Of a stretch of 17,613 nucleotides of DNA, positions 1 to 17,400 are shown one piece after another. This DNA comes from Synechococcus sp. (GTDB taxonomy: Bacteria; Cyanobacteriota; Cyanobacteriia; Thermostichales; PCC-7336). The translations under genes were made by a program, and so were the position numbers. The notes under the pieces were generated by a model. The model was given only the letters and a program-made list of their open reading frames with translations. It was not told where the DNA came from and searched no databases. Positions within the stretch are counted from its first letter, which is position 1. Every line of letters starts with the position of its first letter. The DNA is taken from contig JBFRWN010000055.1 of NCBI GenBank assembly GCA_051439605.1, positions 1 to 17,613 of the forward strand, written 5' to 3'.

Positions 1-106
1 TTACAACGCGAATGGCGCTGAAGCAGGGTTCGGCAACGGTGCCCAGTTTGCCACCATTGAAGGTGCTCCCGTACTCGATGCTAACAACTTTGTTGTTCAG
101 GCATAA
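1..106 (+). CDS. 3' end of an RTX/hemolysin-type Ca-binding secreted protein (partial, T1SS-type C-terminus)
   Basis: The frame starting at nt 2 reads YNANGAEAGFGNGAQFATIEGAPVLDANNFVVQA*, with TAA at 104-106. This matches the usual cyanobacterial RTX tail (LFYNxNGxxxGFGxGxQFAxLxxxPxLxAxDFxx). The rest of the gene lies outside the window. Confidence 0.75.
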   Translation, partial: YNANGAEAGFGNGAQFATIEGAPVLDANNFVVQA

Positions 107-235
107 ACGCTTCCGAAGAGTACGCAAAATTCCTTGAGCCATGTCCAATTTGAACTTAATTTTTTCCCAGAGAAAAGCTATATTAGGGCGTGGCTTAAGT
201 CCAAGCATTAACTATTCGCGACAGGAGAAAATCTC

Positions 236-495
236 ATGACTATTCAATCTAAATATCACTAATAGTCCAACAGGACAAGAAGCATCGTCCGCGATGCGAT
301 CGGAGGAGTCAACCACATCTATTTAGGTAATTTTGGGTCAGACCCTTTGAATGATTGTGTGTGAGTCCGAGCCAGATTTCAGGAGCTGTTGAACGCCATA
401 AATCGCCAAATAAACGATCTGAATCATGAGTTTCCCAGCATGTTTAAGTATGTCGTCCTGAAATCAAATGGCACTCCTCAAAAATGAATATATGG
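236..495 (+). pseudogene. Degraded lipoxygenase remnant (start region followed by the LOX C-terminal ~65 aa)
   Basis: AGGAG at 223-227 precedes ATG at 236. That frame reads MTIQSKYH**SNRTRSIVRDAIGGVNHIYLGNFGSDPLNDCV*VRARFQELLNAINRQINDLNHEFPSMFKYVVLKSNGTPQK*, and a 1-nt shift at 484 gives M-N-I. This is colinear with bacterial LOX C-termini (LGxVxHxxLGxY...RFQxxLxxIxxxIxxRN...YxYLxPxxIPxSxNI, recalled from memory). In-frame stops occur at 260, 263, 362 and 485. Confidence 0.6.
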
Positions 496-589
496 AGTTA
501 TCTATCACCAGTCTTTTGCCAATAAAGGCGTTGATTTATAACCGCCGATTTGCAGTCGACATTGTAGTTTGGTAGGGAGATAGAAGTCA

Positions 590-2050
590 ATGAACCTCAG
601 TTTTGATAATGTTCTGTCGATATCGCCAGCAACGTTAGTGAGTGGGTTGGTTGGAGTCGTTGCTTTGGGATTGGCGATCGCCCGACTGGTTCCAAGGGCT
701 AAGTCCAAAAATACGGCTTCGACGTTTGAGCGGCTGTTAAACGGGTTCCAAATTTGGGCGTTGCAGCATCCCAAAACTGTCTTAAGCCGCTTGGTGTTGC
801 CGATCATCAATGTCGTCGAAGGAGGGTTGGCCAATTTACCGACCTATCTCGATGCCAAACGACTGGCATTTGGGTCAAGTTTTTGCTGTGCGGGTCAGGT
901 AGTGATAGGTGACTTTAGCACGCTCGAAACAGCGCTTACGTCTCCCCAGGCACGGACTTGGCGACTTGGAACATCTCCGCTCGATGCCCATTTCTCACCC
1001 AATCTGGATGCTGGGGGGCGCAACGTTTTTCTACTATCACTCTCCGATGTTGGTGCGGGTGGGGCTGGCGATCGTGAGGTGTTTAGGCAGGCGCTAGAGG
1101 ACTATGCTCTCAATGCAGCCTCAAAGGAACGACAGCACGATGCGACAGCTCGGCAACTGCTCGATCGCTTGGCAGCCGATTACGCCGAGATGCCTCACGG
1201 TCAGGGAGATGTCTTTTTCACCGACAATCGACGAGGGTGGATGGGCTTCCTAGTGCGATACATTCACTACGTGATGCTGGGGATTGACCCAACAGACTCT
1301 GCGACAGTGGAGATGCTGACCGATCTGCATTACACCAAACGAGGTACGGTGCATTATTTTGCCGTTATGGGTCGGTTGTTTCGGCGGTTGAACATTCGCG
1401 GTCACCGTCAAATTTCCCAGCTCATCGAGCAGGCGGCAACGATCTACGAGCAGTCGCCAGCTTTAGCCGATTTCCCCGAAACACTGGAGGGGGCCGAGGG
1501 CATGACCCGACGAGAGTTGGCGAAATTGCTAACGGCCATTCTCAGTATTGCTGGCCTCCAGGGTCCCCTGCACCTGGGGTATACGGCGATGGGATTTCGG
1601 CCCCTGCCTGCCTATAAAGGTCAGCATACGGCCGAGATCGATCCCGTACACTATTGGGACCGTCTCGATCTCGACGATCGCGAGGGCGTACGGCGGTTCG
1701 TCCTGGAATGTGCTCGAATTTGGGCTCCAGTGTCTGCCACCCACCGCGTTGCTACGGAGCCGTTCACTACTGCGATTTCCGGTAAAGAGCGGACGTTTCC
1801 TGCCGGAACGTTAGTCCTCATCCCGATGAGTTTGGGATTGCTCGACAGCAGCTTTTGGGGACCAACGACCTACGAATTTGACGCTCAGCGCGAGAATCTA
1901 TGCCCCTATCACATGGGCTTTCATTCTGTGGGAGATCGCCATGCCGGTCGCATTTGTCCTGGAAAAGACCTGGCCCTCGACATGCTGGTTGATGTGCTGA
2001 TTTCGATTGGACGGGTTCGTCGGTCCGTTGCGGCTGACAACGCTAGGTGA
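590..2050 (+). CDS. Atypical cytochrome P450 with N-terminal membrane anchor (candidate hydroperoxide-metabolising, CYP74-like chemistry)
   Basis: 486 aa. It has the K-helix ExxR (LECAR), a meander-like FDAQR and a heme Cys in FHSVGDRHAGRICPGKD. The I-helix reads SIAGLQGP instead of AGx(D/E)T. The N-terminus has a hydrophobic segment LVSGLVGVVALGLAIA, and GGGAG lies upstream of the ATG. Confidence 0.88.
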   Translation: MNLSFDNVLSISPATLVSGLVGVVALGLAIARLVPRAKSKNTASTFERLLNGFQIWALQHPKTVLSRLVLPIINVVEGGLANLPTYLDAKRLAFGSSFCCAGQVVIGDFSTLETALTSPQARTWRLGTSPLDAHFSPNLDAGGRNVFLLSLSDVGAGGAGDREVFRQALEDYALNAASKERQHDATARQLLDRLAADYAEMPHGQGDVFFTDNRRGWMGFLVRYIHYVMLGIDPTDSATVEMLTDLHYTKRGTVHYFAVMGRLFRRLNIRGHRQISQLIEQAATIYEQSPALADFPETLEGAEGMTRRELAKLLTAILSIAGLQGPLHLGYTAMGFRPLPAYKGQHTAEIDPVHYWDRLDLDDREGVRRFVLECARIWAPVSATHRVATEPFTTAISGKERTFPAGTLVLIPMSLGLLDSSFWGPTTYEFDAQRENLCPYHMGFHSVGDRHAGRICPGKDLALDMLVDVLISIGRVRRSVAADNAR

Positions 2051-2161
2051 CGAATATCAAACGACGACCTTCAAGCGATGAATATCAAGGCAGTCAACGT
2101 TCTTCTCTCATATGTACCTCTCTAAGCTATCTCGTTCACAGACCTCGTTGGGGAACCTCTC

Positions 2162-3019
2162 ATGACCGAGTCCTGGCGTCACGACTACTTGGACACGAAT
2201 GGCATCAAACTCCATTACGTCACCCAAGGCGAAGGACCGTTGATGCTAATGCTGCATGGCTTTCCGGCTTATTGGTATTCATGGAAATATCAAATTCCCG
2301 AATTTGCTCGGCACTACACAGTCGTCGCGCTAGATCTGCGCGGATATAACGACAGCGATCGCCCCAGGAATGCTAGTGCCTATCGGTTCGAACCACTGAT
2401 TGCCGATGTTCGAGGGGCGATCGCTGCACTGGGATACGACCGCTGTATCTTATTGGGACATGACTGGGGGGGGGCCTTGGCTTGGTCGGTAACCTACGCC
2501 CACCCCGAATTGGTTGAGAAACTGATTGTAATGAACTTCCCCCATCCGGCCAAGTTTGCTGCCGGGTTACGAACTCCCTGGCAACTGCTCAAAAGTGCTT
2601 ACATTCTCTGGTTCCAGCTGCCGGTACTTCCGGAACTTCTGTTGTCAGCAAACAATTACCGGGGAATTGCTGCCACTTTTGCTGACATCAACAGGTATAA
2701 CCCCGAATTTACAACTGCCGACATCGATCGCTTCCGGGCTGCTGCCTCTAAACCTGGTGCCATTAGAGCCATGTTGAACTACTATCGGAACCTATTTGAG
2801 GGGCCAATTTTCCAGAATGAGTGGGGGCGATTGGATGTTCCCACCTGCATGATCTGGGGTGAAGAGGACAAAGCTTTTGGCAAAGAATTGACCTACGATA
2901 TGGAGCGATATGTCAACAACTTACAGCTCCAGTACGTGCCTGAGGGGGCTCACTGGGTGCAGTTAGATCGACCCGATATTGTGAATCAGCATGTAAGCCA
3001 GTATTTGGGGCTTGCATAA
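2162..3019 (+). CDS. Alpha/beta-fold epoxide hydrolase (soluble EH-like)
   Basis: 285 aa. Motifs: HGFP oxyanion loop, DLRGYNDS, nucleophile Asp in GHDWGG, lid tyrosines in SAYIL and MLNYYR, acid in WGEED, and catalytic His in GAHWVQ. Confidence 0.88.
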   Translation: MTESWRHDYLDTNGIKLHYVTQGEGPLMLMLHGFPAYWYSWKYQIPEFARHYTVVALDLRGYNDSDRPRNASAYRFEPLIADVRGAIAALGYDRCILLGHDWGGALAWSVTYAHPELVEKLIVMNFPHPAKFAAGLRTPWQLLKSAYILWFQLPVLPELLLSANNYRGIAATFADINRYNPEFTTADIDRFRAAASKPGAIRAMLNYYRNLFEGPIFQNEWGRLDVPTCMIWGEEDKAFGKELTYDMERYVNNLQLQYVPEGAHWVQLDRPDIVNQHVSQYLGLA

Positions 3020-3075
3020 GGGTTTTGTTGCAATAACGAGAAAGCCAGGCTCGGCTCAGAAGCGGAAAACCCTGT

Positions 3076-3098
3076 TGGGGACAGTGCCACTATCCCCA
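3076..3098 (+). terminator. Possible stem-loop downstream of the epoxide hydrolase gene
   Basis: TGGGGACAGTG-C-CACTATCCCCA is an inverted repeat matching at 10/11 positions, about 55 nt after the stop codon. There is no U-tract, so the terminator role is uncertain. Confidence 0.3.
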
Positions 3099-3191
3099 TC
3101 AGTAGTTGAGGGCGCCGAATCCGACTGTTCATAAGCTTGTACTTGGGAAGTTGGCGGCTTCAGCGCTTCTAACAACAGTTCGTAGGCATCA

Positions 3192-4659
3192 GGAAGCGGA
3201 ATATATTTACAGCTTCTATTCTGATTGTTATGGCATGCCTGTAATGAGGTATGAACCGAGTACTTTGTGGAAATGGACTACGAACTACGGGTGATCGTGG
3301 AGAAAGTCGCGGTCAGTTCCCAGAAAGTCGTGAAACGAGATACTCTCAAGGTCTACGACATTACAGCCCCTGAATCGATTCTCGATTTAGGTCTACGTCA
3401 CGAAGAACAAATCTCTCTTCTGGAGAAAGTTCAGAATTCAATCCTAGCCGTCCAATCCAAACTAATCGATCCCGGGCACGATCGCTGTCCGAAATGCGGC
3501 GGGAAACTCAATAAACGTGGGTTCGCCAAATCCAAGTTTCAAGCAGTATTCACCGATCATAAAGTAGGCATCCAAAAGCATCGATGCCAAGCCCCTGAAT
3601 GTAAGTGGCAAAGCACGCCCACAACAACGTCCGTGTTCGGTACCTCTATCCATCCAGATCTAGCCAAGTTGCAGTGCGAGCAAGGAGCTTTGTACAGCTA
3701 CCGTGAAGCTGAGAGCAACTTGGCGAAACTGACTGTTCATCGCCGTCGAGTGAGCAACCACAATCAAATTCGATTGCTGACTGACACTGTGGGTGATGTC
3801 CTAGCCAAAGAGAATCTTGAGTCTCCCAGTCAAAGCAACTGCGCTCCTCCAGCTGCAGAGCTAATTGTCCAAGTGGATGGAGGGCATGTCCCAATCAAAG
3901 AGAAAGAGAAACGTAGCTTTGAAGCCTTGTCAGCAGTCGTTTATCGGTCAGAGAGCATCCGGCAAATGGACAAGCATCATCGAGAGATTAAGAGCAAAAG
4001 CTGTGCACTCTCAGCCAAGGATGATGGGCAGGCCTCAATTAACACTTACATCCTCAATGCTGCTCGCAAGCAAGGGTTAGTTGACGACACCGCAGTGACA
4101 GTTCTGGCCGATGGAGCCCCCAACTGTTGGTCGGCGCTAACGAGCCTAGAGAATCATTGCAAGCAACTGACACGCATCTTGGACTGGTGGCACATTGGCA
4201 AGAATTTTCAAAATGCCAGGGGTGCGGTTGAGGAAGAATTCAAGGAGACGCTAGAGAGTGTCAAATGGAAATTGTGGCATGGCAAAGCTGAGGAAGCCCT
4301 GACCAAGCTGGAACTGCTGATGAGCAATGTTACAGACTCGAAGAAACGTAAGAAGCTTAAGGTTCTGTATAAGTATTTGAAAGGGAATCAAGATTACCTG
4401 GTTAATTATGAAAAGCGAGAGCAAGAGAATCAGCCTTTTAGCAGCCAGGTAGCGGAATCTCACATCGAATCACTCGTCAATGCTCGACACAAAAGAAGCG
4501 GAAAAATGCAATGGACTCGGGACGGAGCCCACAAAGTTCTGCAAATCAGAGGGATGATTGCGAGCAACGAGTGGGAGATGAGATGGCAACCTGCGGTGCT
4601 ACAGGCACTTGAAGTAGCAGCTTAATAGAGCGATTGCGCTGTAAATATATTCCGCTCCC
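3192..4659 (+). mobile_element. Complete ISKra4-family insertion sequence, 1468 bp
   Basis: The left IR GGAAGCGGAATATATTTACAGC (3192-3213) and the reverse complement of 4638-4659, GGGAGCGGAATATATTTACAGC, match at 21/22. They enclose a single transposase. No flanking direct repeat is visible, and there is no perfect HIP1 site inside. Confidence 0.88.
3267..4625 (+). CDS. ISKra4-family (Mutator-like DDE) transposase
   Basis: 452 aa; the start may be GTG 3267 or ATG 3273. It has an N-terminal CPKC...CxxxxC Zn motif and DDE motifs VQVDGG, LADGA and VAES, plus LDWWH and a C-terminal RHKRSGKMQWTRDGAHKVLQIR. Confidence 0.9.
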   Translation: MEMDYELRVIVEKVAVSSQKVVKRDTLKVYDITAPESILDLGLRHEEQISLLEKVQNSILAVQSKLIDPGHDRCPKCGGKLNKRGFAKSKFQAVFTDHKVGIQKHRCQAPECKWQSTPTTTSVFGTSIHPDLAKLQCEQGALYSYREAESNLAKLTVHRRRVSNHNQIRLLTDTVGDVLAKENLESPSQSNCAPPAAELIVQVDGGHVPIKEKEKRSFEALSAVVYRSESIRQMDKHHREIKSKSCALSAKDDGQASINTYILNAARKQGLVDDTAVTVLADGAPNCWSALTSLENHCKQLTRILDWWHIGKNFQNARGAVEEEFKETLESVKWKLWHGKAEEALTKLELLMSNVTDSKKRKKLKVLYKYLKGNQDYLVNYEKREQENQPFSSQVAESHIESLVNARHKRSGKMQWTRDGAHKVLQIRGMIASNEWEMRWQPAVLQALEVAA

Positions 4660-4819
4660 CTCAGTAACGGATTAAAGATGCTGAGCGCATTACTCTCGGA
4701 CCCGAAGTAGTACGAAACCGGTGGTTATTATTAGGCTTTTTCAGTCGCGTGGATAATCCCAGTAAAATTGGCGGTGTCGATCGGGTGCTATCTCAGGCAA
4801 GGAACTCGGCACGCAGGCT

Positions 4820-7800
4820 ATGGCTGATTCGGTACAGGCATCAGAAGCGGGGTTGAAACTCATTGATAGTGCTAGACGCCAAAGACGATGGAATAAAACT
4901 GCAGAGGTATGGTGCCGGAAAGCGTTTACCTCTCGCGCCACATTGAATCGATTTTGGGCCAGGCAACCGATTCGCCGCGAGGCCTTTATTGCCATTTGCT
5001 CTGTTGTCGGAGTGGATTGGGAATCCGTAGCAGAAGAGGGAGTGTCTTCTACCAAGAGGCTTTCTAACGCGGCAACACCCGACAAGGAAGATAGTCCTCA
5101 AGCTATTGCGTCTCAGGTCACCGCAAATACCTCGGGGGCAAAACAGCCTGCATCCGTTGGTGAGGATTGGGGGGATGCTCCTGATGTGGCGGGGTTCTGC
5201 GGGCGATCGCAGGAACTGGACCTGCTCGCTCGCTGGATAGTCAAAGAGAACTGCCGCTCGGTGGCTTTGCTCGGCATGGGGGGGATTGGCAAAACCACAT
5301 TGGTGGCTAAGCTGGCCCGCGAGATTCGACCGCAGTTTGACAATCTGGTGTGGCGCAGTCTGCGCAATTCTCCATCTGCAGACGAGATTCTAGTCGACCT
5401 AATTCAGGTGTTGAGCGGCCAACAGGTGGGGGAAGTGGCTGCAGGGCTGGATGGCAAAATCCGTCAGTTGATGCAGTACCTCCGCCAGTCTCGTTGCTTG
5501 TTAGTACTCGATAATGTGGAGTCTATTTTGCAGGGAGGAAATCGGGGGGGGCATTATCAATCGGGGTACGACGCCTACGGCCAGCTGTTTCGGTGTGTCT
5601 GGGAGACAGAGCATCGCAGTTGTCTGATGCTCACCTCGCGCGAACCCCCCCACGGGCTAATCCAGCGGGCGGGAGATGCCTGCCCTGTACGCAGCCTCAA
5701 CCTGTTGGGGGTATCGACGTCTGATAGCCAGCAGATTTGCCATACCAAAGGACGCTTTTCGGGGTCAGAGACTGACTGGCAACGGTTGACCGAACATTTT
5801 GGGGGAAACCCTCTGGCTCTGCAACTGGTGGCGGCCACCATTCGAGATTTCTTTGCCGGTAGCCTCTCGCAGTTTTTGCAATTGGAACAGCAAGAGATTG
5901 CTCTATTCGACGATATTCAAGCGCTGCTGCACCAACAGTTTCAACGGCTCCCCCTGCTGGAACAGGCTGTTATGTTTTGGCTTGCCATCGAGCGGGAGCC
6001 AACCACCCTGGTTGAGCTGATGGTTGACTGTATGTGCCACGAGTCCACCAGCGAACTCATGCAATCTTTGTTATCGCTGCAACGGCGATCGCTGGTAGAG
6101 GCCAATGAGGGTCGATTTACTCAGCAGCCAGTGGTTATGGAATATGTCACTCGCTGCCTGGTGGAGCGCATCTGCGACGAAATCCTATCTCAAGAGGTTA
6201 AACTCTTCCGCTCCCATGCCCTTGTCAAAGCCCAAGCCAAAGACTACATCCGCGACAGTCAGCTAACCGTTATTTTGAAACCCATTGCCACCCGACTCCT
6301 AGAGCGATTGGGTTCCCCCCAAGCAATCAAGGCTCATCTCGGCCCCATCTTAGAAGATCTCCAAGCGGAAGCTAGTGAGAGCACGCTGCCTGAATTGCCC
6401 GGACAATCTGCCAGCAGCGATCGCCTAGCCAGCAAGACAGGATATGCCTGCGGCAACATCATTACTCTGTTGCAATACCTGCAGGTGGATTTAACTGGTT
6501 ACGACTTTTCGCATCTCACCGTCTGGCAAGCCAACTTGCGTGGCAGCGATCTGCAGAGGGTGAACTTCACCCATGCGGATTTGTCCAAGTCGTTATTCAC
6601 CGAAACGTTAGGGCTAACATTTGCAATTGGTTTTAGTCCGAATGGCCGGATATTGGCAACCGCAGGGGCAAAGGGGGTCATCCATCTCTGGCAGGGAATG
6701 GGTGCAGAAGCCGGTTCGACTGGCCTGGGGAGGAAATTAGGTAGTTTAGTCGGCCACACGGGTTGGATTTGGTCGATCGCCTTTAGCCCCGATGGCCGAA
6801 TGCTGGCCAGTGGTAGTGAAGATGGCACTGCCAGGCTGTGGGGGGTGAAGACCCAAGCTTGCCAGGCTCACCTGGATGCAGAGGGCAGCCAAGTTTGGTC
6901 TGTTGCCTTTAGCCCCGATAGTCAATATCTGGCCTGCGGTTGTGAGGATGGAATTGTCAGACTGTGGGATATTGCCAAACAAACTTGCCTTGAGTTATCG
7001 GGGCACCGGAGTTGGATTCGGAGCGTTGCCTTTAGCCCCAACGGTCAATTTCTAGCAAGCGCAGGTGACGAGGAAGCGATTTATCTTTGGGAACACCCTT
7101 GGGGTGACTACGTGAGGAAATTTGAGGGGCATCTCAGCGATCGCATTTGGTCCATTGCGTTTAGCCCCAACAGCCGCCATTTGGTCAGTAGTAGCAGCGA
7201 TCGCACGGTCAAGATATGGGATGTAGACACTGGTGAATGCCTCCGCACTTTGGAAGGCCACAGGAATTGGATTCGGGCAGTTGCAGTCAGTCCTTGCGGA
7301 GCGATCGTCGCCAGCGGGAGTGAAGACCACACGATTAAGCTGTGGAATGCTGAAACTGGACAGTGTTTGAACACGTTACGCGGTCATTCCAACTGGGTGC
7401 GCGCGATCGCATTTAGTCCTGATGGGTTGTTGCTTGCTAGCGGCAGTGGCGACCATACGGCAAAACTTTGGCAAGTTGCGAGTGGCTTCTGTCAGAAAAC
7501 GCTTCAGGGATATACGAGCCGAGTGTGGTCGGTGGCGTTTTCTCGAGATGGCAGGACATTAGCGAGTGGTCACGATGATTGTGCAGTCCGCCTCTGGTCC
7601 GTAAAAGAGGGGATCTGTCAACAGACACTACGGGAGCTCAATGGCAGCTGGATTTCATCCGTTGCGTTTAGCCCTGACGGTGCGTGGTTGGCCAGTGCCA
7701 GCACTGCGGCCATCAGAGTTTGGGAGGTGGGCAGCGGCCGTTGTTTGCAAGTCTTGCAAGGGCATACCAGTCGAATTTGGTCAGTGGCATTCTGCCCGCA

Positions 7801-8491
7801 TGGTCGCTGGTTAGCCAGTGGCAGTGAGGATGGTACTGTTCGCGTTTGGTCACTCAAGACTGGCACCTGCAGCCATATCTTAGAGGAGCACAGTAGTTGG
7901 GTTTGCGGAGTCTCATTCAGCCCCGATGGCGGAACATTTGCCAGTGCCAGTTATGACAACTCGGTAAAGTTGTGGGATGTTGCCTCTGGCAACTGCCTAC
8001 AAACGCTGAGGGGACACGACAACTGGGTGTGGACAACCGCGTTTAGTCCTGACGGTCGTACGCTTGCTACAGGTGGCGGGGACTCCACCGTTAAACTTTG
8101 GGACCTAGCGACCCAAACCTGCCACCTTACTTTAAAGGGACATACCAGTCGGGTGTGGTCGATTGAATTTAGTCCCGATGGGAATTTGCTGGCCAGCAGT
8201 AGCAGCGATCGCACTGTGCGAGTTTGGGACGTTGGCTCGGGGCGCTGCCTCCGTGTCCTGCAAGGGCACTCAGATATTGCTTGGTCAGTGAGGTTTAGTC
8301 CCCAGGGTCAATCCATCGCCAGTGGTAGCCAAGATGAGACCGTTCGGCTTTGGGATACAACGTCTGGTGAATGCTTGCGGGTCCTGAAATCTGCTCGACC
8401 TTACGAAGGCATGAATATCACAGGCGTGCGCGGAATTACGGACGCTTGCAAACAGACATTGTTTGCGTTGGGAGCCATTTCAATTCAGTGA
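4820..8491 (+). CDS. STAND NTPase: N-terminal HTH-like domain, NB-ARC, pentapeptide segment and 14 WD40 repeats
   Basis: 1223 aa. It has Walker A GMGGIGKTT, Walker B LLVLDNVE, sensor LTSRE, GGNPLAL and a pentapeptide-like WQANLRGSDLQRVNFTHADLS. I counted 14 GH...WD-type repeats by eye, and the C-terminus is RPYEGMNITG. Confidence 0.92.
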   Translation: MADSVQASEAGLKLIDSARRQRRWNKTAEVWCRKAFTSRATLNRFWARQPIRREAFIAICSVVGVDWESVAEEGVSSTKRLSNAATPDKEDSPQAIASQVTANTSGAKQPASVGEDWGDAPDVAGFCGRSQELDLLARWIVKENCRSVALLGMGGIGKTTLVAKLAREIRPQFDNLVWRSLRNSPSADEILVDLIQVLSGQQVGEVAAGLDGKIRQLMQYLRQSRCLLVLDNVESILQGGNRGGHYQSGYDAYGQLFRCVWETEHRSCLMLTSREPPHGLIQRAGDACPVRSLNLLGVSTSDSQQICHTKGRFSGSETDWQRLTEHFGGNPLALQLVAATIRDFFAGSLSQFLQLEQQEIALFDDIQALLHQQFQRLPLLEQAVMFWLAIEREPTTLVELMVDCMCHESTSELMQSLLSLQRRSLVEANEGRFTQQPVVMEYVTRCLVERICDEILSQEVKLFRSHALVKAQAKDYIRDSQLTVILKPIATRLLERLGSPQAIKAHLGPILEDLQAEASESTLPELPGQSASSDRLASKTGYACGNIITLLQYLQVDLTGYDFSHLTVWQANLRGSDLQRVNFTHADLSKSLFTETLGLTFAIGFSPNGRILATAGAKGVIHLWQGMGAEAGSTGLGRKLGSLVGHTGWIWSIAFSPDGRMLASGSEDGTARLWGVKTQACQAHLDAEGSQVWSVAFSPDSQYLACGCEDGIVRLWDIAKQTCLELSGHRSWIRSVAFSPNGQFLASAGDEEAIYLWEHPWGDYVRKFEGHLSDRIWSIAFSPNSRHLVSSSSDRTVKIWDVDTGECLRTLEGHRNWIRAVAVSPCGAIVASGSEDHTIKLWNAETGQCLNTLRGHSNWVRAIAFSPDGLLLASGSGDHTAKLWQVASGFCQKTLQGYTSRVWSVAFSRDGRTLASGHDDCAVRLWSVKEGICQQTLRELNGSWISSVAFSPDGAWLASASTAAIRVWEVGSGRCLQVLQGHTSRIWSVAFCPHGRWLASGSEDGTVRVWSLKTGTCSHILEEHSSWVCGVSFSPDGGTFASASYDNSVKLWDVASGNCLQTLRGHDNWVWTTAFSPDGRTLATGGGDSTVKLWDLATQTCHLTLKGHTSRVWSIEFSPDGNLLASSSSDRTVRVWDVGSGRCLRVLQGHSDIAWSVRFSPQGQSIASGSQDETVRLWDTTSGECLRVLKSARPYEGMNITGVRGITDACKQTLFALGAISIQ

Positions 8492-8527
8492 CCTGAGTGA
8501 GGGGGACGCCCGAAGCAAACGCATCAC

Positions 8528-8726
8528 GGAAGCGGAAATCTTCCTTGTGCTTAAGGTAGCATTTATTACGATGACAATTTGAGGCTTCAGAAAATTGGTA
8601 TTTGTATATTATTAATAGCTAATTTTATGATCGTCGTCCTAAAGGTTATTAGGGATGGAGCTTGCCAAAACATTTTTAAAACGTGTAAACACTTATACGA
8701 GCAGCATAGTAAATATTTCCGCTTCC
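8528..8726. mobile_element. Putative 199-bp MITE with ISKra4-like terminal inverted repeats
   Basis: A perfect 12-bp inverted repeat: GGAAGCGGAAAT (8528-8539) and ATTTCCGCTTCC (8715-8726). The right end read inward (GGAAGCGGAA-ATATTTAC) matches the IS left IR (GGAAGCGGAATATATTTAC) with one gap. The interior is AT-rich with no credible gene. Confidence 0.6.
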
Positions 8727-8811
8727 ATCTTCGATCTCAATTCATATCCTGTAGTGGGCATCTCCGTAGAATACAGGGTACGATCGCTGCCAATTCTGCA
8801 GGATAAATTTT

Positions 8812-10482
8812 ATGGAGGCGATTGACCCATTCGGTACGCAGAAATCCAATGCTTTAGCCACTGTTACCCAAGGTTCCCTCACACAAGGACTTGAGGCGCG
8901 CCTCAACCCAAGTATCTCTGTGGAAGAGATGCGAGTCGGCAAGTTTGTTGTCATCCGAGGGCTGCGCAGTCGTTTTTTTGGGTTGTTGACGGATGTGGCT
9001 CTGGGCAGTAACTCTGCCCAGATTTTGATTGACCCTCCCCAACCCCACGAAGCCTTTTTGGCGGATGTTTTAGCGGGCACGGGTACATTTGGCACCATTG
9101 CCGTGGTACCGATGCTGATGCTGGTAGAACATTCATCCTCTCAAGAAGTAGAACTATTGCCAGTAAAGACGGTACCCGCCCATTTCTCTCAGGTTTTTGA
9201 AGCTGAAGATAGCGATTTTCACGCGGTATTTGGCTCGGAATCCGATCGCCAACACAAGAACTTTGCGATCGGACAACCTGTGGATATGGCCGTTCCTATT
9301 TGCATCGATCTCAACCGCTTTGTAGAACGCAGCAACGGGATTTTTGGCAAGTCGGGAACGGGAAAATCCTTTCTGACTCGCTTACTTCTATCTGGGGTGA
9401 TTCGCAAGCAGGCGGCGGTCAATTTGATTTTTGATATGCATTCCGAGTACGGATGGGAGGCCGCAGCCGAAGGGCATAGCACCAGTACCGTTAAGGGTCT
9501 GAAGCAACTCTTTCCAGGGCAAGTACAAATTTATACTCTGGATGCGGAGTCGACGAAGCGGCGTGGGGTACGCGATGCGTTAGACCTGTTCATCAGCTAC
9601 AGCCAAATTGAAGTGGAAGATTTAGCTCTGCTGCGGGAGGAGATTAATATTTCGGAGGCCAGCCTAGAAAACGCCGTTATCTTGCGCAATGAATTTGGTC
9701 GTGATTGGATAACCCGTCTCATGACTATGTCCAATAGCGATATTCAAGAGTTTTGCGAACAGCGCATGGGTCACAAAGCCTCCATGATGGCGTTGCAACG
9801 GAAGCTGACTCGTCTGGAAGACTTACCTTACTTACGCTCGGCGGTCCCCCACAATTACATCAATCAAATTTTGGAATCGTTGGAAGCCGGCAAGCACGTG
9901 GTGATTGAGTTTGGTGCTCAGGCCAATATGCTGTCCTACATGCTCGCCAGCAACATCATTACTCGTCGAATCCACCAGGCTTACGTTCTCAAAGCAGAGC
10001 GATATTTGCACAGTAAAAACCCAGCCGATCGCCCTCGGCAGTTGATGATTGTCATAGAAGAAGCCCACCGATTTTTGGCTCCCCAAACGGTTAAGCAGAC
10101 GATTTACGGCACGATCGCCCGCGAAATGCGCAAGTATTTTGTGACGCTATTGGTGATCGATCAACGCCCCTCTGGTATCGATAGCGAGGTCATGTCCCAA
10201 ATTGGCACTCGTATTACTGCCCTGTTGAATGACGACAAAGATATCGATGCGGTGTTTACGGGGGTCTTCGGAAGCCAAAACTTGCGCACTATTTTGGCAA
10301 AATTAGATTCCAAGCAGCAGGTATTGGTTTTGGGTCATGCGGTGCCGATGCCAGTCGTCGTGAGGACGCGTCCCTACGATGAACGGTTTTATGCAGAAAT
10401 GGGTGACATTGACTGGAGCGAAGCCTCCGATCGGGACGTCAAGGAAGCGGCTGAACTGGCGCGTTCTGAATTAGGGCTATGA
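8812..10482 (+). CDS. HerA/FtsK-superfamily ATPase (HAS barrel plus DUF87-type domain), conserved cyanobacterial type
   Basis: 556 aa. It has an N-terminal beta-rich HAS-like region, Walker A GKSGTGKS, IFDMHSEYG, Walker B IVIEEAH, the arginine-finger region REMRK and DQRP. Confidence 0.88.
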   Translation: MEAIDPFGTQKSNALATVTQGSLTQGLEARLNPSISVEEMRVGKFVVIRGLRSRFFGLLTDVALGSNSAQILIDPPQPHEAFLADVLAGTGTFGTIAVVPMLMLVEHSSSQEVELLPVKTVPAHFSQVFEAEDSDFHAVFGSESDRQHKNFAIGQPVDMAVPICIDLNRFVERSNGIFGKSGTGKSFLTRLLLSGVIRKQAAVNLIFDMHSEYGWEAAAEGHSTSTVKGLKQLFPGQVQIYTLDAESTKRRGVRDALDLFISYSQIEVEDLALLREEINISEASLENAVILRNEFGRDWITRLMTMSNSDIQEFCEQRMGHKASMMALQRKLTRLEDLPYLRSAVPHNYINQILESLEAGKHVVIEFGAQANMLSYMLASNIITRRIHQAYVLKAERYLHSKNPADRPRQLMIVIEEAHRFLAPQTVKQTIYGTIAREMRKYFVTLLVIDQRPSGIDSEVMSQIGTRITALLNDDKDIDAVFTGVFGSQNLRTILAKLDSKQQVLVLGHAVPMPVVVRTRPYDERFYAEMGDIDWSEASDRDVKEAAELARSELGL

Positions 10483-10642
10483 GAATTTTGAGCTCTGAAG
10501 ATTTTAGGGCTTTGAAGCATGAAGTTGATGCTGTCTGTTTGGAAAGCTAGCCCAACAGCGGTGAATGTTGAATTCAGCTTTGGGTAAATGTGACGGGGCC
10601 TACTATCTTACGTACTCTGGCAGCAAGATTCTGAACGACCGT

Positions 10643-11095
10643 ATGTCCGAGTTACTGCAAATTCTGGTGCTCCACGGCCCGAACCTCAATCTCCTAGGTA
10701 CGCGGGAGGTGGGAACCTACGGCAATACTACCCTTACAGAAATCAACAACCAGTTGAGGGGGTTGGCCACAACGCTATCCGCCGAGTTAACGATTGACCA
10801 ATCGAACCACGAAGGCCGGTTGGTCGATCTGATTCACGATGCCAGAGGCCAACAAGCTGGATTGTTAATCAATCCAGGGGCTTACACCCATACGAGCATT
10901 GCCATTCGAGATGCCGTGGCCGGGACAAGCCTTCCCACCGTCGAAGTTCACCTCAGCAACATTCATCAGCGGGAAACCTTCCGCCATCATTCCTTCCTTG
11001 CCCCAGTGGCGGTAGGACAAATCGCGGGCTTTGGTCCCTTTAGCTATCACTTGGGTCTAAGGGCCTTAGTTCATTACCTTCAATCGCAACCGTAA
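10643..11095 (+). CDS. aroQ: Type II 3-dehydroquinate dehydratase
   Basis: Signature motifs [38 protein letters not shown] and [20 protein letters not shown] 10643 fits the family length better than the ORF-track start at 10565. Confidence 0.96.
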
Positions 11096-11154
11096 ACAAT
11101 GGGATGGAGAGAAAGTACGAGAATCGTTTAGATTCCAAAGCGACTTGACTCCAT

Positions 11155-11775
11155 TCAGCCTAACGATCGATTGGGACCGATATAGCGCGTCAGCAGGTTG
11201 GAGAAAATCTCAACGATGAGCGTCAGGGGTTGTTGGTGATGCCAAAGGACGTAATGGCGTCCCCAAAACGGCCCTTTTACCCCAAATTCACGTTCTAATT
11301 CAGCGGACTGCCCCAAATACAAACCGTGCATTTCTCGGAACAGCTCCGTGCGGTGGAGGCTGAGATTATGCCCAATAGGCCGATCGGGATTACGCAGATG
11401 CGTTCCCATTGATTCAGAGTTCCACCAAGAAGCCCCGTACATGAGCGGATGGCCAGAGGCCCCATGCAACATCACTTGACGGCGCAGGTTAGGTCTGTCC
11501 AGCAACGCAACCGCCGCAGGGGCATTCTCATCAACGGAGGCAATCATCGAAGTAGCAATGCAGCTAGCCGTAATTTCTTCCCCTGTCAGCAGACCCAGGT
11601 TGCGGGTAGTATAGCCGTCATTCAGCAGCAGCAGGCGCCAGGCTGGGGGAATAGGGGGGACAAATTTTTTCTGCTGCAGGTCAAGCGTGTTGGCCTCCCA
11701 AATACAATCCAGCTGCCACCAAGCAGAGGGTGCAACCGAGCGAAGCGTACCTGATGGATGGGATGTGGCTGTCAA
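11155..11775 (-). CDS. ubiC: Chorismate lyase (4-hydroxybenzoate synthase), cyanobacterial Ycf21/DUF98 type
   Basis: 206 aa with a TTG start. Motifs PAWRLLLLNDGYTTRNL, RRQVML, YGASWW, PIG and GPFWGRHY...PLTLIVEIFS are typical of the Ycf21/UbiC-like family. Confidence 0.85.
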   Translation of the reverse strand: MTATSHPSGTLRSVAPSAWWQLDCIWEANTLDLQQKKFVPPIPPAWRLLLLNDGYTTRNLGLLTGEEITASCIATSMIASVDENAPAAVALLDRPNLRRQVMLHGASGHPLMYGASWWNSESMGTHLRNPDRPIGHNLSLHRTELFREMHGLYLGQSAELEREFGVKGPFWGRHYVLWHHQQPLTLIVEIFSNLLTRYIGPNRSLG

Positions 11776-12050
11776 ACTCGCCCTACCGTCGCATTAATGT
11801 TCTGTTACATTTACTTTAGTCTATCCACCGAAAGGCGAAAAGTATTTGTAGAGTGCCCCACTCCGTTGAAGTTATGTAAGGGCAGACATATGGGCGATCG
11901 CCTGTGGCCCCATCAATGAGAAGTCTAAAATGGGAATATTTGGGTTGGCGATCGCTCGAAGCAGCTTGTCGTTTACGATTTGTAACTATACGTTGCCCAG
12001 TTCTGCATAGATAGATGGGGCACTTGCCGATAGCTCTGCAGGAAAAAACC

Positions 12051-12278
12051 ATGCCACACACAATTGTTACGGATGTATGTGAAGGGGTCGCAGATTGCGT
12101 GGAAGCTTGTCCAGTCGCCTGCATTCACCCCGGCGACACCAAAAACGCCAAGGGTACCGACTATTTCTGGATTGATTTTGACACCTGCATTGACTGCGGC
12201 ATTTGCCTGCAGGTATGCCCAGTAAAAGGGGCAATTCTGCCCCAAGAGCAGCCCGATCTGCAGCGCCTGCCAGCTTAA
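12051..12278 (+). CDS. Bacterial-type dicluster ferredoxin, probably [3Fe-4S][4Fe-4S]
   Basis: MPHTIVTDVCEGVADCVEACPVACI...CIDCGICLQVCP. The first motif lacks the second Cys; the second is a canonical CxxCxxCxxxCP. AGGA precedes ATG 12051. Confidence 0.92.
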   Translation: MPHTIVTDVCEGVADCVEACPVACIHPGDTKNAKGTDYFWIDFDTCIDCGICLQVCPVKGAILPQEQPDLQRLPA

Positions 12279-12349
12279 AAGAGTAGGGTTGAGCTGCAGA
12301 GTAGTCTTTAGGACTGCTGCGCTCGAATCCTGTTCGGTGATAACGATCG

Positions 12350-13645
12350 ATGGTGCTCAGATTTTGTAAGTCGAGAACCTATCACGATCCCCTTCATGGG
12401 GCAATTCAGCTGGATGGGCGCGATCCCGCAGAAGCGCTACTTATCCGACTGATCGATACTCCGGCATTTCAACGCCTGAGGCGGATTCGTCAGCTAGATA
12501 CCGCATCTTTCACGTTTCATGGGGCTGAGGGCTCCCGCTTTACCCATTCCGTTGGGGCGCTTTATGTGGCGCGGTGGGTGTTTGATGCAATTTCCCACGC
12601 TCATCCAGAACTGCGCCCCTACCGCACCTTGGTGCTGGTTGCGGCCCTACTGCACGATATTGGCCACAGTCCATTTAGCCATGCCGGGGAAGAGATTTTT
12701 GGCAGCCATCACGAGCTCTGGACGAGCAGGATCGTCACAGAGGACCCGGACATCTCGCATTTATTCGCAGCCTACAATCCCGAACTGCCCCGCCAACTTT
12801 TGCAGGTTTACCGCCATGAATTTCCAATTCCGGCCATAGGACAGCTGATTTCCAGCCAACTGGATTGCGATCGTCTGGATTATTTGCTCCGAGATAGCCA
12901 TTACACGGGGGCCCAATACGGTCGGCTCGACCTAGACCGCATCGTCACGGTGCTGGATTACGACCCAGAGATGCAGCGGTTAATGATCCCCGAGCGCAAA
13001 GGATTGGGGGCGATCGAGCATTACCTAGTGGTGCGGTACTTCATGTACACGCAGGTGTATCACCACCCCAAGAGCATTGCCGCCAGATTTGTATTGGAGA
13101 AGTTATTCGAGCGAGCTCGTCAGCTCTGGCAAGCTGAGGAATTAACTTGCGATCGCATTCTGTCCGCTTGGTTGCAAGGGCCAGTTGACGAGCTGCCCTT
13201 AAAAACCTACTTGGATGCGGACGACATCATGTTTCAGTACCCCATCCGATTTTGGGCAGAACATTCCGACCCAATCCTGTCTGACCTCGCTCGGAGGTTC
13301 TTAGATCGCGATTTGTTCAAGGCCAGAAATTTGGCCGATCTTGATGTACGCCAGCTACAACAGCTTCAAGAGACGATCGAGCACGAATTGAACCGTCTCG
13401 GTTTAGCGTGTGACAGCTACCTCGGCTTGCATTCCGCTCATGCTCGAGGGTACAGCCTTTACCACGAGGGCATCCACCTAAAAGGGGACGGTGGATATCG
13501 AGAAATTGCCGAGCTATCTCCTTTGGTTAACTCTCTGACCCAAACGGCCCCCACTACTCGAATTATTTTTCCTCGCGAGGTGGAAGAAACTGTGGAGTTC
13601 TTTTTGCAGCAGTCGGCCAAACAATCGGCTCCTTTAAGAGTTTGA
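12350..13645 (+). CDS. HD-domain phosphohydrolase (dNTP triphosphohydrolase/SAMHD1-like family)
   Basis: 431 aa. Motifs DPLHG, FQRLRRIRQL, SRFTHSVG, LLHDIGHSPFSH, LDCDRLDYLLRD and RYFMYTQVYHHP. Confidence 0.88.
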   Translation: MVLRFCKSRTYHDPLHGAIQLDGRDPAEALLIRLIDTPAFQRLRRIRQLDTASFTFHGAEGSRFTHSVGALYVARWVFDAISHAHPELRPYRTLVLVAALLHDIGHSPFSHAGEEIFGSHHELWTSRIVTEDPDISHLFAAYNPELPRQLLQVYRHEFPIPAIGQLISSQLDCDRLDYLLRDSHYTGAQYGRLDLDRIVTVLDYDPEMQRLMIPERKGLGAIEHYLVVRYFMYTQVYHHPKSIAARFVLEKLFERARQLWQAEELTCDRILSAWLQGPVDELPLKTYLDADDIMFQYPIRFWAEHSDPILSDLARRFLDRDLFKARNLADLDVRQLQQLQETIEHELNRLGLACDSYLGLHSAHARGYSLYHEGIHLKGDGGYREIAELSPLVNSLTQTAPTTRIIFPREVEETVEFFLQQSAKQSAPLRV

Positions 13646-13830
13646 GGGATGGGACCCAGATTTCTGTCTGGAAATAGTATTGAGGCCGAGCGATGAATAT
13701 GCTGAAGCTTATGCCCAGCAAGGGTTTTGGCTGACGACATATCCTCGACAACTTGACGGTCGCTATAGAAGCAAAGTCAGTTTAGACTGAGAGAGCTTGA
13801 CCCCCCCTTTTATTGTCTGTTGATTTTCCG

Positions 13831-14394
13831 ATGACCGAAGCTACCACCGCTCCCCCACAGTATTTGCGCTACGAAGTTACGGGCTCACGCCGCCTCGGCA
13901 CGCTGTTGGTGGCGATTGCATGCACCATTGGTGGGGTTGGTTTCTCTTTAGCCGGTTTATCCAGCTACACAGGTGTCAACTTGATTCCCTTCTCTAACGA
14001 CCTCAACTTGGTGTTTATTCCACAGGGGTTGGCCATGTCTTTTTACGGAGTGGCGGGTTCCCTCACTGCGCTGTATCAGTGGCTCACCTGGTCCTGGGAT
14101 GTTGGGGGTGGTTACAACGAGTTCAGCCGAAAGACCGGCAAATTCACCGTGCAGCGCAACGGTTTCCCCGGCAAGAACCGCAACATTAAATTTTCCTACA
14201 AGCTGGACGACATCCAGCGCGTACGGGTCGATATCAAAGAGGGATTGAATCCCAAGCGGGCTATCTACGTCACTGTGCGTAAAAAAGGGGACATCCCTTT
14301 AACCCGAGTGGGGCAGCCGATGGCATTGTCTGCCATTGAAGATAGCGCGGCGGAAATTGCCAGTTTTTTGGGGGTTCCTTTGGAAGGAATTTAG
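13831..14394 (+). CDS. ycf4: Photosystem I assembly protein Ycf4
   Basis: Motifs VTGSRR, two hydrophobic helices, FIPQGLAMSFYG, DVGGGYNEF, GFPGKNR, IPLTRVGQP and AAEIASFLGVPLEG. ATG 13831 is preferred over TTG 13813. Confidence 0.96.
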   Translation: MTEATTAPPQYLRYEVTGSRRLGTLLVAIACTIGGVGFSLAGLSSYTGVNLIPFSNDLNLVFIPQGLAMSFYGVAGSLTALYQWLTWSWDVGGGYNEFSRKTGKFTVQRNGFPGKNRNIKFSYKLDDIQRVRVDIKEGLNPKRAIYVTVRKKGDIPLTRVGQPMALSAIEDSAAEIASFLGVPLEGI

Positions 14395-14487
14395 ACTCGT
14401 CTAGCCATCGAAAACGTTAGCTCAAACTCAGCCTTCTTGGAGATAAAGCGCGAATAACCTGAAATCTCAAATCTCAATAACAGGAAA

Positions 14488-17400
14488 CTAAAACCGAGTT
14501 TCGAATTCAATTGAGCCCCTTGTGTCTCTGTTGAAGTCGCTTCGCCCCCGAAGCAGCCAGGAATTGTTCACTCGATATCGCAATCCTAAACGGGGATCTT
14601 CTTCTTGTTCTGTTAAGCTGCCCTCTGCAGAAATTGAGATGTTGCGACCTAGATCTCTTGCAACTTCAAGACCTAAGCTAGTTTCGTTCTTTCTTCCATA
14701 AAACGTCCCAATACTCACTTCATCGAGTCCAAGCCTATCTCCAATGGCATTTTCGCCACCGAAAAGCGTGCTTGTGACAGTGGATTCTAAAGCAGTACCC
14801 ACCAAATCGCTGACGATACTTTGTGCCAACAAGTTGCGAATCTCAGACTGAGAGCGATCGGGGACACTTGAAAAGACAAGCGTAGAAGAGTCTAACCCCC
14901 CAGCCAATTTGCTGGCTTTGCCCTGAACGGTTGCCCGGATTTCAATCGTGCGCGTGCTTCCAGTCCTTCTCGCGCTGAAGTCACTCCCTTGACCGTTTTG
15001 ACCGGTAAATTGCACCACCTCGTTCTTGGGATCGCCTCCCCCAGTCGAGCGGTCTATTTCCTCCGCGCGAGTAAATACCCGAACGTTGAGATCGGGATCT
15101 AGGCCATTCTCACGACTAAACACAGCCGTGTTAGGCCAAGACCGATCGAGGCGCAGGAAGGCCGGTCCTGCTGTAATTGCCCCTCTCGTCAGGGAAATGG
15201 TCCCTTCCCCCTGCGGTGAATCTAACGGACCGTATAGAGATAAATCTCCCTTAGCCGTGAAACGAAAAATGGGTTCCCACCCGATATTGAGTCGATCGCC
15301 TAAGACAAGCTTGAAGCCATCAAACTCTGGCTGGATAGGGGAAGGGCTGGGTGGTTGGTAGGTGCCCACACTAGCTGTAACGGTCGCTTGAGTGTTTCTG
15401 GGAGAGATGTCGACAAATCCTTCCCAAACATTGACTTCCCCAGAAATTTTTGGGGCCAGTAAACTTCCTGCGATCGCAATGTCCCCAGACACTTTCCCGT
15501 TGTACAAGTCAGGCAACTCAATTTGTGTGGGGTCGATCGCAATGGTTAGGGGTGACATATCTGAATCAAGTTTGTCAGGCTCCGATACCGGCAGAAAGCC
15601 AGCGGCCGTAATTTGTCCCCCAACAAAATCTGTTGAGAAAGATTCAACATGAATCCTGTCAAAATCAAAAAATACTCTGGTATTCAGGTTAGTCAGTGGT
15701 TCGGGGGAGGCAATCGCGTCTAGCGTAGTGTCTCTCAGGGAGAGATTTCCGGCAAGAGTTAAATCGTGAATGGTCTTACCATCAAATCTTCCTTGAAAAC
15801 CAACTAATAATTCACCCTTTGGAGATTGTAATGCAATTGCGTCTGTCAGCAAGTTGACGAATATCAGCTCGCTATCTCTTGCCTCGATCTGCACCGCAAA
15901 CCGATCGCTTTTAGGCGGAACCGTTACCAACGGGAATTGATACGGGATTGTCCCAACAAGCGTGGCAGGATCGTCGATATCCGCGCTATTGATAGCCATA
16001 CTCCCATTCAGTTGAAGGATGCTATTTTGGTAGCTATAGTCACCCAGAACTGCATAGATAGGCTCTTCATTAAAGGTGGCTTGGTCAAGCCTCATATCTC
16101 CCTCGACTTTAGGGTTGCTGAGACTGCCTGCCAAGTCGGTCGTAAGACTCAGGTCTCCAGAAAAACTAGGTGAAGAAGGGACAAATCTTTGCAGAAGCTC
16201 GATGGGAAATTCGTTGACTTGGATCGCTCCTTCAATTTCATCTAAGCCAAACGTACCCCTAGCTGTAGCAAAACGATTGTCGGTTTTTGCAGTAAACGTG
16301 GTTATGTTTAGCTGTAAATCTTTTAATAATCCATTCAGCTCTAGCTTCTCGATTAGGAATTCTTCTAGGGACCAATTCTCCCCTTGAAAATCAACTTGCG
16401 CAATGGGATTGTTCAACAGTCCAACCAGTCGAATATCCCCTTGAAAATCTCCTTTAAGGTTAGCCAAGTTTGGGATCCGGGGGTCGCTGACTACCGCAGA
16501 ATCAAGCCGATCTACGATATACGCATAGGCAGAGATTTGGTCGTACAGCGATCGCTGCCAAGAGAGAATTGGATTTGTGCGCAAATCCTCAGCAGTGCCA
16601 AGCTCCGGAATTTCAAAGCTCTGGATGATATCCGACCATTCGTTCCAATCGAGCCCCGCCAATACATCTTCGAGCTTGCCATTCTCCGCAGAAACAAAGA
16701 GATCGACCTGCGCTGGCAGCGGTTGATTTCTGACTAAACGGCCCCCTCGCATAAACGAGCCGGTGTTGCTGGGGAGCGTGACGGAACCATTCGCTTCAAT
16801 AACAGTACCTTCCAGTGCGAGTTGACCGTTATTTAGGGTGACGACGTTATTGGAGAAGGAGAATCCAGATTCTAATCGACTGACTTTCAACCCAGCCCAA
16901 TGGGGCTGCTCGGCAACAAAATCTCCCATAACGCTCCTGTCCTGCAAGTTGACTGCCAACGTGCTGTCCAGGGTGCCACCAAAATATCCGGGCAGAATTC
17001 CATTCAGGAGAGAGAGGGGGACTTGAACAACTTGAAGGTTCAACAGGTCGTTTTGTCTTGCCCCATCAATGGTAGTAATGCCCTGGCGAACGTTGACTTT
17101 GGTAGGAAAAAAATCTGCTCCGGTGGTGAGAAAAATGCGATCCGGTTCCGTGTCATCTGCACTGCCACTCTCGACCAAATCGAGCGATACCCCTTGATTG
17201 GCTTGCCAATTAACCGGACCTTGCAGCGGCTCAAATGCCAGGGCAGCGATCGCGAGCGAATTTGCTGTGGCATTAGCAGCTAGCCGGAGGTTATCCAGAG
17301 GGCCCGTAATAGTTCCCTGAAAGGAAACTATCCCCCCTATAGGTTGAGATGAGAGTACTGGTAGAGTTTCTAGCTGGAGGTTGTCGGCCACTAAGGCAAG

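Follow-up and report, generated by a model that had tools for sequence, protein, structure and literature searches.

A lipoxygenase-linked family of divergent cytochrome P450s and a candidate route to hydroxylated oxylipins in a cyanobacterial genome

What does a cytochrome P450 do that lacks the residue pair for O2 activation and lies between the remains of a lipoxygenase (LOX) gene and an epoxide hydrolase gene? The question is raised by one end of contig C55, which belongs to a cyanobacterial assembly of 4.9 Mb and of which bases 1-17,613 were analyzed (the window; its first base is base 1 of the contig). An earlier interpretation of this DNA, made without database searches (the sequence-only reading), had proposed a pathway from LOX-derived hydroperoxides through a CYP74-type P450 and an epoxide hydrolase, with the LOX since lost from the strain. 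The logic of that pathway held up in the analysis described here; the assignment of the P450 to CYP74 and the loss of the LOX from the strain did not. The answer that we prefer, at a probability of about one half, is that an unlinked LOX encoded on contig C17 is the predicted source of fatty-acid hydroperoxides, that the P450 likely rearranges these into an epoxide oxylipin, and that the hydrolase would convert the epoxide by ring opening into a diol or triol. The three elements were all found where they had been placed:

299..487, plus strand: C-terminal relic of a LOX gene, a pseudogene remnant of about 60 codons (match to a profile of LOX C-termini; in-frame TGA at 362-364).
590..2050, plus strand: divergent cytochrome P450 of 486 amino acids (fold, ExxR motif, Cys456).
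2162..3019, plus strand: alpha/beta-fold epoxide hydrolase of 285 amino acids (Pfam Abhydrolase_1; PDB 5ng7).

The 590-2050 protein scored 14.5 bits against the Pfam p450 model (PF00067), below the cut-off of 22.8, and more distant members of its family exceed that cut-off (P0198, for example, at 44.3 bits). A PDB search with the single sequence returned CYP130 alone (E 0.002). When a profile of 43 family members was used, 359 PDB sequences matched at E<=1; the 60 that were listed were all P450s (best E 4.8e-9), and the CYP152 fatty-acid peroxygenases were among the matches of this profile. The AlphaFold2 model obtained with the 43-member alignment had a predicted local distance difference test score (pLDDT) of 92.4. 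Compared with the PDB by Foldseek, the rows listed were all P450s at template modeling (TM) scores of about 0.45-0.55, and a VIA-align structural search against representatives gave P450s in 50 of 50 rows (Z 22.5-26.5, 300-375 residues aligned). An N-terminal helix at residues 13-33 was modeled with low confidence and is predicted to resemble a membrane anchor.

The catalytic motifs agree with the fold. Thirty close family members all have E373 and R376 of the ExxR motif, R434 and Cys456 (GRICPGKD), and the Cys loop, GRIC456PG, aligns without gaps on the Cys loops of CYP11A1 and others. The I-helix reads A321-G-L-Q324-G325-P-L-H328 and does not carry the classical acid-alcohol pair of (A/G)Gx(D/E)T(T/S). 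In the profile alignment, the family's AGlqGt falls on AGTDST of isoflavone synthase (8e83) and therefore the acid-alcohol position is occupied by Gln324-Gly325. Both residues, as well as H328 one turn on, are invariant in the same 30 proteins. The 590-2050 gene is thus intact and its product a highly divergent P450, and the absence of the O2-activation pair, reported in the sequence-only reading, was confirmed. The gene is also under purifying selection relative to G001, a genome of the same genus, with a ratio of nonsynonymous to synonymous substitution rates (dN/dS) of 0.19 between the orthologues. A P450 with 78% identity to that of the window is found in Synechococcus sp. PCC 7335, the locus of which lies outside the 80 genome loci compared below. 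NCBIfam has no model for the window P450, nor for the LOX of its own genome.

Whether this enzyme belongs to the CYP74 clan can be judged from the marks of the clan. According to the available text of PMC8124189, these are the Cys ligand, the ERR triad, a PPV domain, nine extra residues inserted in the heme-binding loop and an I-helix groove in which an Asn is conserved. No Asn occurs in the I-helix core of either the window P450 or the family consensus (LMTSIMSIAALQGPLHLGYTAMG). There is no nine-residue insertion in the heme loop either; the family Cys loop matches that of CYP11A1 residue for residue. The structural comparison with guayule allene oxide synthase (AOS; 3dam) produced the longest VIA-align alignment, 375 residues, at rank 11 and a Z of 24.5, which is tied with many others and within 2 Z of the top. 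No CYP74 structure was present among the 60 PDB profile matches listed or among the Foldseek rows listed. Because both the I-helix Asn and the heme-loop insertion are missing, the P450 was filed as a non-member that would work like CYP74, and the earlier CYP74-type assignment was abandoned.

The connection of this P450 to lipoxygenases was examined in 116 loci: the window, 80 loci of species-representative genomes and 35 from metagenome contigs. Two or more of these contigs duplicate genome loci, and many of the loci are short. The P450s were grouped at 80% identity into 20 clusters. A LOX gene was found within 6 kb of the P450 gene in 30 of the 116 loci, representing 13 of the 20 clusters. 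It is located directly upstream on the same strand, ending 66-233 nucleotides (nt) 5' of the P450, in 10 of the 80 genome loci, and in five others of this set of 80 the order is P450, hydrolase, LOX, with the LOX on the opposite strand. On the P450 tree, arrangements with LOX or hydrolase genes are present on most of the deep branches. In a set of 301 evenly sampled cyanobacterial genomes the P450 occurred in 11 (6 of 149 genera) and LOX in 85. All 11 P450-positive genomes were also LOX-positive, with the two genes adjacent in four; since these 11 genomes are interrelated, the co-occurrence is a pattern and not a clean statistic.

An exhaustive search of representative sequences with the P450 family gave 208 clusters at E<=1e-3. 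Single polypeptides that combine a P450-like domain and a LOX were among them: P0195 (Tetraselmis striata, 1130 amino acids), P0196 (metagenome, 1085 amino acids), P0164 and P0268 (Cymbomonas). The P450-like domain is N-terminal and the LOX C-terminal, and a PLAT domain is present in two of them, including P0195. P0195 and P0196 share 30-31% identity with the window P450 over about 420-440 aligned residues and keep the ExxR motif and the Cys loop. Thus, the P450 family is linked to LOX by neighborhood, by co-occurrence and by fusion, and the sequence-only reading was borne out in its expectation that homologs of the P450 would be found next to LOX and epoxide hydrolase genes (30 and, as detailed below, 14 of the 116 loci, respectively).

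Some further features of the family were recorded. Where the source of a fusion is named, it is a green alga, either Tetraselmis striata or Cymbomonas tetramitiformis. A P450-like domain is also borne by a diatom protein, P0259, from Nitzschia inconspicua (1589 amino acids). The LOX frames that adjoin or co-occur with the P450 in family f17, in genomes G173, G189, G288 and G211, are unusually long at 754-845 amino acids, compared to about 600-650 elsewhere, and may hold an extra N-terminal domain.

In the window itself the LOX is represented by a short remnant. The stop-to-stop frames 266..364 and 365..487 on the plus strand share one reading frame and are separated by the TGA at 362-364. The Pfam LOX model, applied to a translation of the relic in which X stands for the stop, detected no family even at E<=10, and a purpose-built C-terminus profile was needed for this reason. 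This hidden Markov model (HMM) was made from the last 110 residues of 10 P450-adjacent LOX genes and of the LOX of the window's own genome (n=11). Its match to the window, at 11.1 bits, is in frame +2 and pairs nt 299-481 with model positions 47-106 of 110; no other frame reported by the search scored above -1.0 bits. In 342 six-frame tiles covering the entire window the best score outside the relic was 2.5 bits, and when bases 1-600 were shuffled with their dinucleotides preserved, 990 of 1000 shuffles scored, the maximum being 5.2 bits and none reaching 11.1. The location is syntenic with the ends of the LOX genes in the 10 genome loci in which LOX directly precedes the P450. The LOX-like C-terminal remnant that had been seen at 290-495 is confirmed by these scores.

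About 60 of some 630 LOX codons are left. The frame ends in PQK* (485-487) and not in the terminal ...PQSINI, and 299-487 does not contain a full LOX catalytic domain with the iron ligands, including the C-terminal Ile. This segment is a LOX relic, a pseudogene remnant rather than a gene. As it ends at 485-487, the gap to the P450 is 102 nt and not the 95 nt or so that had been estimated; the estimate of 111 nt between P450 and hydrolase was exact. Bases 2-106 correspond to the C-terminus of an RTX-type protein, and the deletion must therefore have taken out more than 90% of the LOX gene. The same relic, more decayed by a frameshift and extra stops, is present in the homologous stretch of G001 (L005 7415-9440), which shares 87% nucleotide identity with window bases 1-2029. 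That G001 shares it indicates that the LOX gene was lost before the two species separated.

The strain as a whole has kept a LOX. An intact gene for a 627-amino acid LOX that ends in ...PQSINI is found on contig C17, contrary to the earlier view that the enzyme had been lost. It is a member of the P450-linked subfamily; compared with the eight closest P450-adjacent LOXs, its identity is 59-67% for seven and 56% for the remaining one. LOX and P450 genes also lie apart in Microcoleus and in sister genomes. The intact C17 gene, together with the low dN/dS of the P450, leads us to conclude that the pathway can run with unlinked genes.

The protein encoded downstream of the P450 has 5ng7 as its best PDB match (E 1.8e-77), followed by other epoxide hydrolases. 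According to residue numbering, 5ng7 is CH65-EH, for which the accessible portion of PMC6198070 describes an Asp101/His270/Asp241 triad, Tyr148, Tyr209 and an HGXP motif. HGFP32-35, D101, H264, D236, Y147 and Y208 of the window protein align on F34, D101, H270, D241, Y148 and Y209 of CH65-EH. The catalytic residues, which had been described as intact, are all accounted for by this alignment, and 2162-3019 encodes an alpha/beta epoxide hydrolase with a complete set. The gene has the same orientation as the P450 gene. Of the 116 loci, 14 have an EH-type (epoxide hydrolase-type) gene that is on the P450 strand and within 3 kb downstream; they belong to seven of the 20 clusters, and six of those seven clusters also have a LOX. 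The hydrolases found downstream of the P450 carry HGFP, GHDWG and the lid tyrosines.

The junction between the two window genes recurs in one related metagenome contig only, L095. The order is the same there, the P450 and hydrolase have 91% and 92% amino acid identity to those of the window, the C-terminal tail of the P450 matches and the intergenic flanks are homologous. A 473-nt contig from a public DNA run bridges 2040-2512. The hydrolase is under purifying selection, its dN/dS being 0.13 over 168 codons. Two 151-nt contigs from a metatranscriptomic library map in 1299-1646, within the P450, with 1-2 differences; they are a weak hint of transcription in nature, as DNA carry-over is possible.

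From these data we propose the following course. A LOX-P450 pair such as those found in many other cyanobacteria would have lost nearly the entire LOX gene by deletion before the window species and its sister G001 diverged. The P450 would have been kept under purifying selection and would now likely be partnered with the C17 LOX. It would use the hydroperoxide itself as oxidant, with neither O2 nor a redox partner, and its product would be an epoxide, that is, an epoxyalcohol, an allene oxide or a leukotriene-A-type compound. The hydrolase, probably co-transcribed with the P450, would then open this epoxide. A cofactor-free rearrangement is suggested by the thiolate heme, the Gln-Gly pair, the fusion and adjacency to LOX, the downstream epoxide hydrolase and the lack of a redox partner. 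As to the last, a Pfam scan of the 11 larger open reading frames (ORFs) in the window identified no ferredoxin or reductase, in agreement with the sequence-only reading, which had seen none adjacent. The proposed chemistry is that of CYP74, CYP8A and CYP5 enzymes, as presented in the available part of PMC9214053.

Several observations weigh against this proposal. Nucleotide homology between the window and G001, the closest genome, breaks off some 20 nt short of the P450 stop codon; in G001 a pair of extracytoplasmic function (ECF) sigma and anti-sigma genes, and no hydrolase, comes next after the P450. The window hydrolase is followed, at a distance of 248 nt, by an insertion sequence (IS) transposase gene. 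This gene and the G001 breakpoint mean that the adjacency of P450 and hydrolase could be a by-product of rearrangement. The window hydrolase is only 25-31% identical to the seven usual partner hydrolases (those of cluster-13). A relative with 62% identity in a further genome, G002, is encoded about 600 kb from the G002 P450, between a VTT-domain gene and a two-component system. A promoter and terminator scan of bases 1-4800 found sites no more numerous than in shuffled sequence and no plus-strand terminator between P450 and hydrolase, and is uninformative. Of the 116 loci, 61, mostly from Microcoleus, pair the P450 with a small protein, c2, in place of the hydrolase, and an epoxide product is therefore not implied family-wide. 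A search of the literature other than subscription journals gave no paper on this P450 family and no report of activity for any of its members.

In a rival explanation, the P450 would transform LOX hydroperoxides into a product that needs no epoxide hydrolase, acting like a hydroperoxide lyase, a divinyl ether synthase or an allene oxide synthase, and the hydrolase would be an unrelated accessory gene placed by recombination. We regard this explanation as unlikely, though still worth serious attention. It draws on the breakpoint at the 3' end of the P450, on the transposases (ISKra4 type just past the window hydrolase, Tn5 type beside the P450 of G002), on the different subfamily of the window hydrolase, on the unlinked relative in G002 and on the 102 of 116 loci that have no hydrolase neighbor. 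It does not explain why seven of 20 clusters have an EH-type gene that is placed and oriented alike, and the chance arrival of a second subfamily in that slot is unlikely; moreover, the junction is conserved in L095 and both genes are under purifying selection. A second hydrolase of the same genome, on contig C53, is 46% identical to that of the window and matches a copy present in all sister genomes. The window hydrolase is an accessory paralogue within the genus, of a subfamily other than that of the usual cluster partner. In our reading, a second lineage of epoxide hydrolases has been recruited here to the place that the usual partners occupy, and we consider this to be the weakest link in the argument for an epoxide-opening pathway.

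The P450 could, on the other hand, be an oxygenase or peroxygenase that works with H2O2, or with a redox partner from another locus, and oxidizes fatty acids or some other lipid, so that its link to LOX would reflect no more than a shared substrate pool. In fold and heme loop it resembles ordinary P450s, no CYP74-type insertion is seen in the Cys loop, and CYP152 peroxygenases are among the PDB matches of the family profile. We find this improbable. Throughout the close family, Gln-Gly stands in place of the acid-alcohol pair needed to activate O2, the 11 ORFs scanned encode no redox partner, and the fusion to LOX in one polypeptide argues for consecutive steps. Least credible of all is that the entire locus is a decaying remnant in which P450 and hydrolase stopped being functional or expressed after the destruction of the LOX: the deletion covers over 90% of the LOX gene, the remainder has a stop codon and IS elements are nearby, but both ORFs are intact with all motifs present, dN/dS values are 0.19 and 0.13 although the relic predates the G001 split, an intact LOX exists elsewhere in the genome and the two metatranscriptome contigs fall on the P450, the last being weak evidence.

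The other partners of the P450 family bear on how far an epoxide-opening pathway can be generalized. The protein c2 (L057:9554-10117 and 60 further loci) has about 187 amino acids and no Pfam family, and in most Microcoleus loci its gene immediately follows that of the P450; in L041 the arrangement is LOX-P450-c2. Its AlphaFold model (pLDDT 78.9) is an antiparallel beta-barrel with weak lipocalin-like or nitrophorin-like matches at Z no higher than 7.1. A search of the ESM Atlas provided no usable lead, and the L057 protein, used as query, found no c2 homolog in the genome of the window. Since c2 is the commonest partner in Microcoleus, the chemistry of the product may differ between lineages. 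In five of the 116 loci (L022, L029, L045, L108 and L111, of which L029 and L111 are apparently the same contig) the P450 is followed by a gene for a patatin-like phospholipase of about 1270 amino acids with DUF3376, and in four of the five a LOX precedes the P450. These loci suggest a series of lipid release, oxygenation and rearrangement. A gene for a protein with LRAT and PspA domains occurs 1-3 genes upstream of the P450 in L007, L020, L021 and L048, which are from the marine filamentous genera Okeania, Trichodesmium and Dapis.

The locus is bordered by two further genes:

2..106, plus strand: C-terminus (34 residues) of an RTX-type calcium-binding repeat protein, an upstream gene cut by the contig end (similarity to G001).
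3267..4625, plus strand: ISKra4-family transposase gene, the right border of the P450-hydrolase pair, context only and outside the pathway (NCBIfam NF033572).

The residues encoded by 2-106 share 79% identity with the C-terminus of a 659-amino acid ORF located upstream of the P450 in G001 (L005 5541-7520), which has a Pfam HemolysinCabind match. A minus-strand ORF at 2..208 was considered as an IS fragment that could have truncated the LOX and was rejected; it has no second copy in the genome, and its G001 counterpart overlies the end of the RTX gene, the same gene whose C-terminus is encoded on the plus strand here. The transposase scored 233.5 bits against NF033572, above the cut-off of 205. 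Farther downstream, the window encodes a 1223-amino acid WD40-repeat protein (4820-8491; 13 repeats by Pfam) and then a HerA-type ATPase with HAS-barrel and DUF87 domains (8812-10482). A search for synteny between the downstream genes of the window and those of G001 and G002 found none. In G001 (L005:9470-11016) the P450 stop overlaps the start of the ECF sigma factor gene, and the gene that comes next encodes an RskA-type anti-sigma factor. The Tn5-type transposase gene of G002 is at L094:11372-12727 and, together with the ISKra4 gene of the window, suggests that the P450 locus occupies a recombination-prone region in this genus.

The object of interest is the P450 family more than the partly eroded and rearranged locus of the window. 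We put forward, tentatively, that the family may be a third independent heme solution for LOX hydroperoxides, after CYP74 and the catalase-related synthases. It would be common to cyanobacteria, green algae and probably diatoms, would include natural P450-LOX fusions, and would feed a dedicated epoxide hydrolase in several cyanobacterial lineages, which would amount to an unrecognized route to di- and trihydroxy oxylipins. If this is true, a separate and widely distributed P450 family in the LOX-partner slot adds an enzyme class to oxylipin biochemistry, could explain the epoxy- and trihydroxy-fatty acids reported from filamentous cyanobacteria and would offer cofactor-free biocatalysts for oxyfunctionalized fatty acids. 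A single genome supplies the set of three proteins: the C17 LOX, the window P450 and the window hydrolase.

Four known systems resemble parts of this arrangement. Enzymes of the CYP74 clan (AOS, hydroperoxide lyase, divinyl ether synthase and epoxyalcohol synthase) are likewise P450s without the O2-activation pair that are genetically coupled to LOX, and for both groups a fatty-acid hydroperoxide is expected to be substrate and oxidant. They are named in plants, some proteobacteria, algae and animals in the available text of PMC8124189. The window family differs from them in its I-helix core (IAALQGPLH), which has no Asn, in its heme loop without the nine-residue insertion and in its N-terminal fusion to LOX in some algae; LOX fusions of CYP74 were not found described in the literature searched. 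In cyanobacteria, the portions of PMC8124189 and PMC11719350 available name only catalase-related proteins as LOX partners, and in the literature outside subscription journals we found no paper on a cyanobacterial P450 partnered with LOX or on a P450-LOX fusion. The catalase-related hemoproteins that are partnered with or fused to LOX in cyanobacteria and corals, such as the AOS-LOX of Acaryochloris and that of Plexaura, share with the present system a heme enzyme, encoded upstream of the LOX or fused to its N-terminus, that converts the hydroperoxide, as described in the same two sources; the difference is that theirs is a tyrosinate-ligated catalase fold and the one studied here a thiolate-ligated P450. 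CH65-EH, a metagenomic enzyme, is the closest solved relative of the window hydrolase, with conserved catalytic triad, tyrosines and HGXP motif. Unlike the role proposed here, CH65-EH was characterized on synthetic epoxides, and its natural substrate and gene context are not oxylipin-related so far as the available text of PMC6198070 goes. The overall route has its nearest parallel in the LOX and epoxide hydrolase of Myxococcus xanthus, which make hepoxilins and trioxilins. According to the accessible parts of PMC5760719 and PMC13319228, a hydroperoxide is converted there to an epoxyalcohol and then to a trihydroxy fatty acid, with an alpha/beta epoxide hydrolase acting last, and the LOX itself makes the epoxyalcohol, the step for which a separate P450 is predicted in the window.

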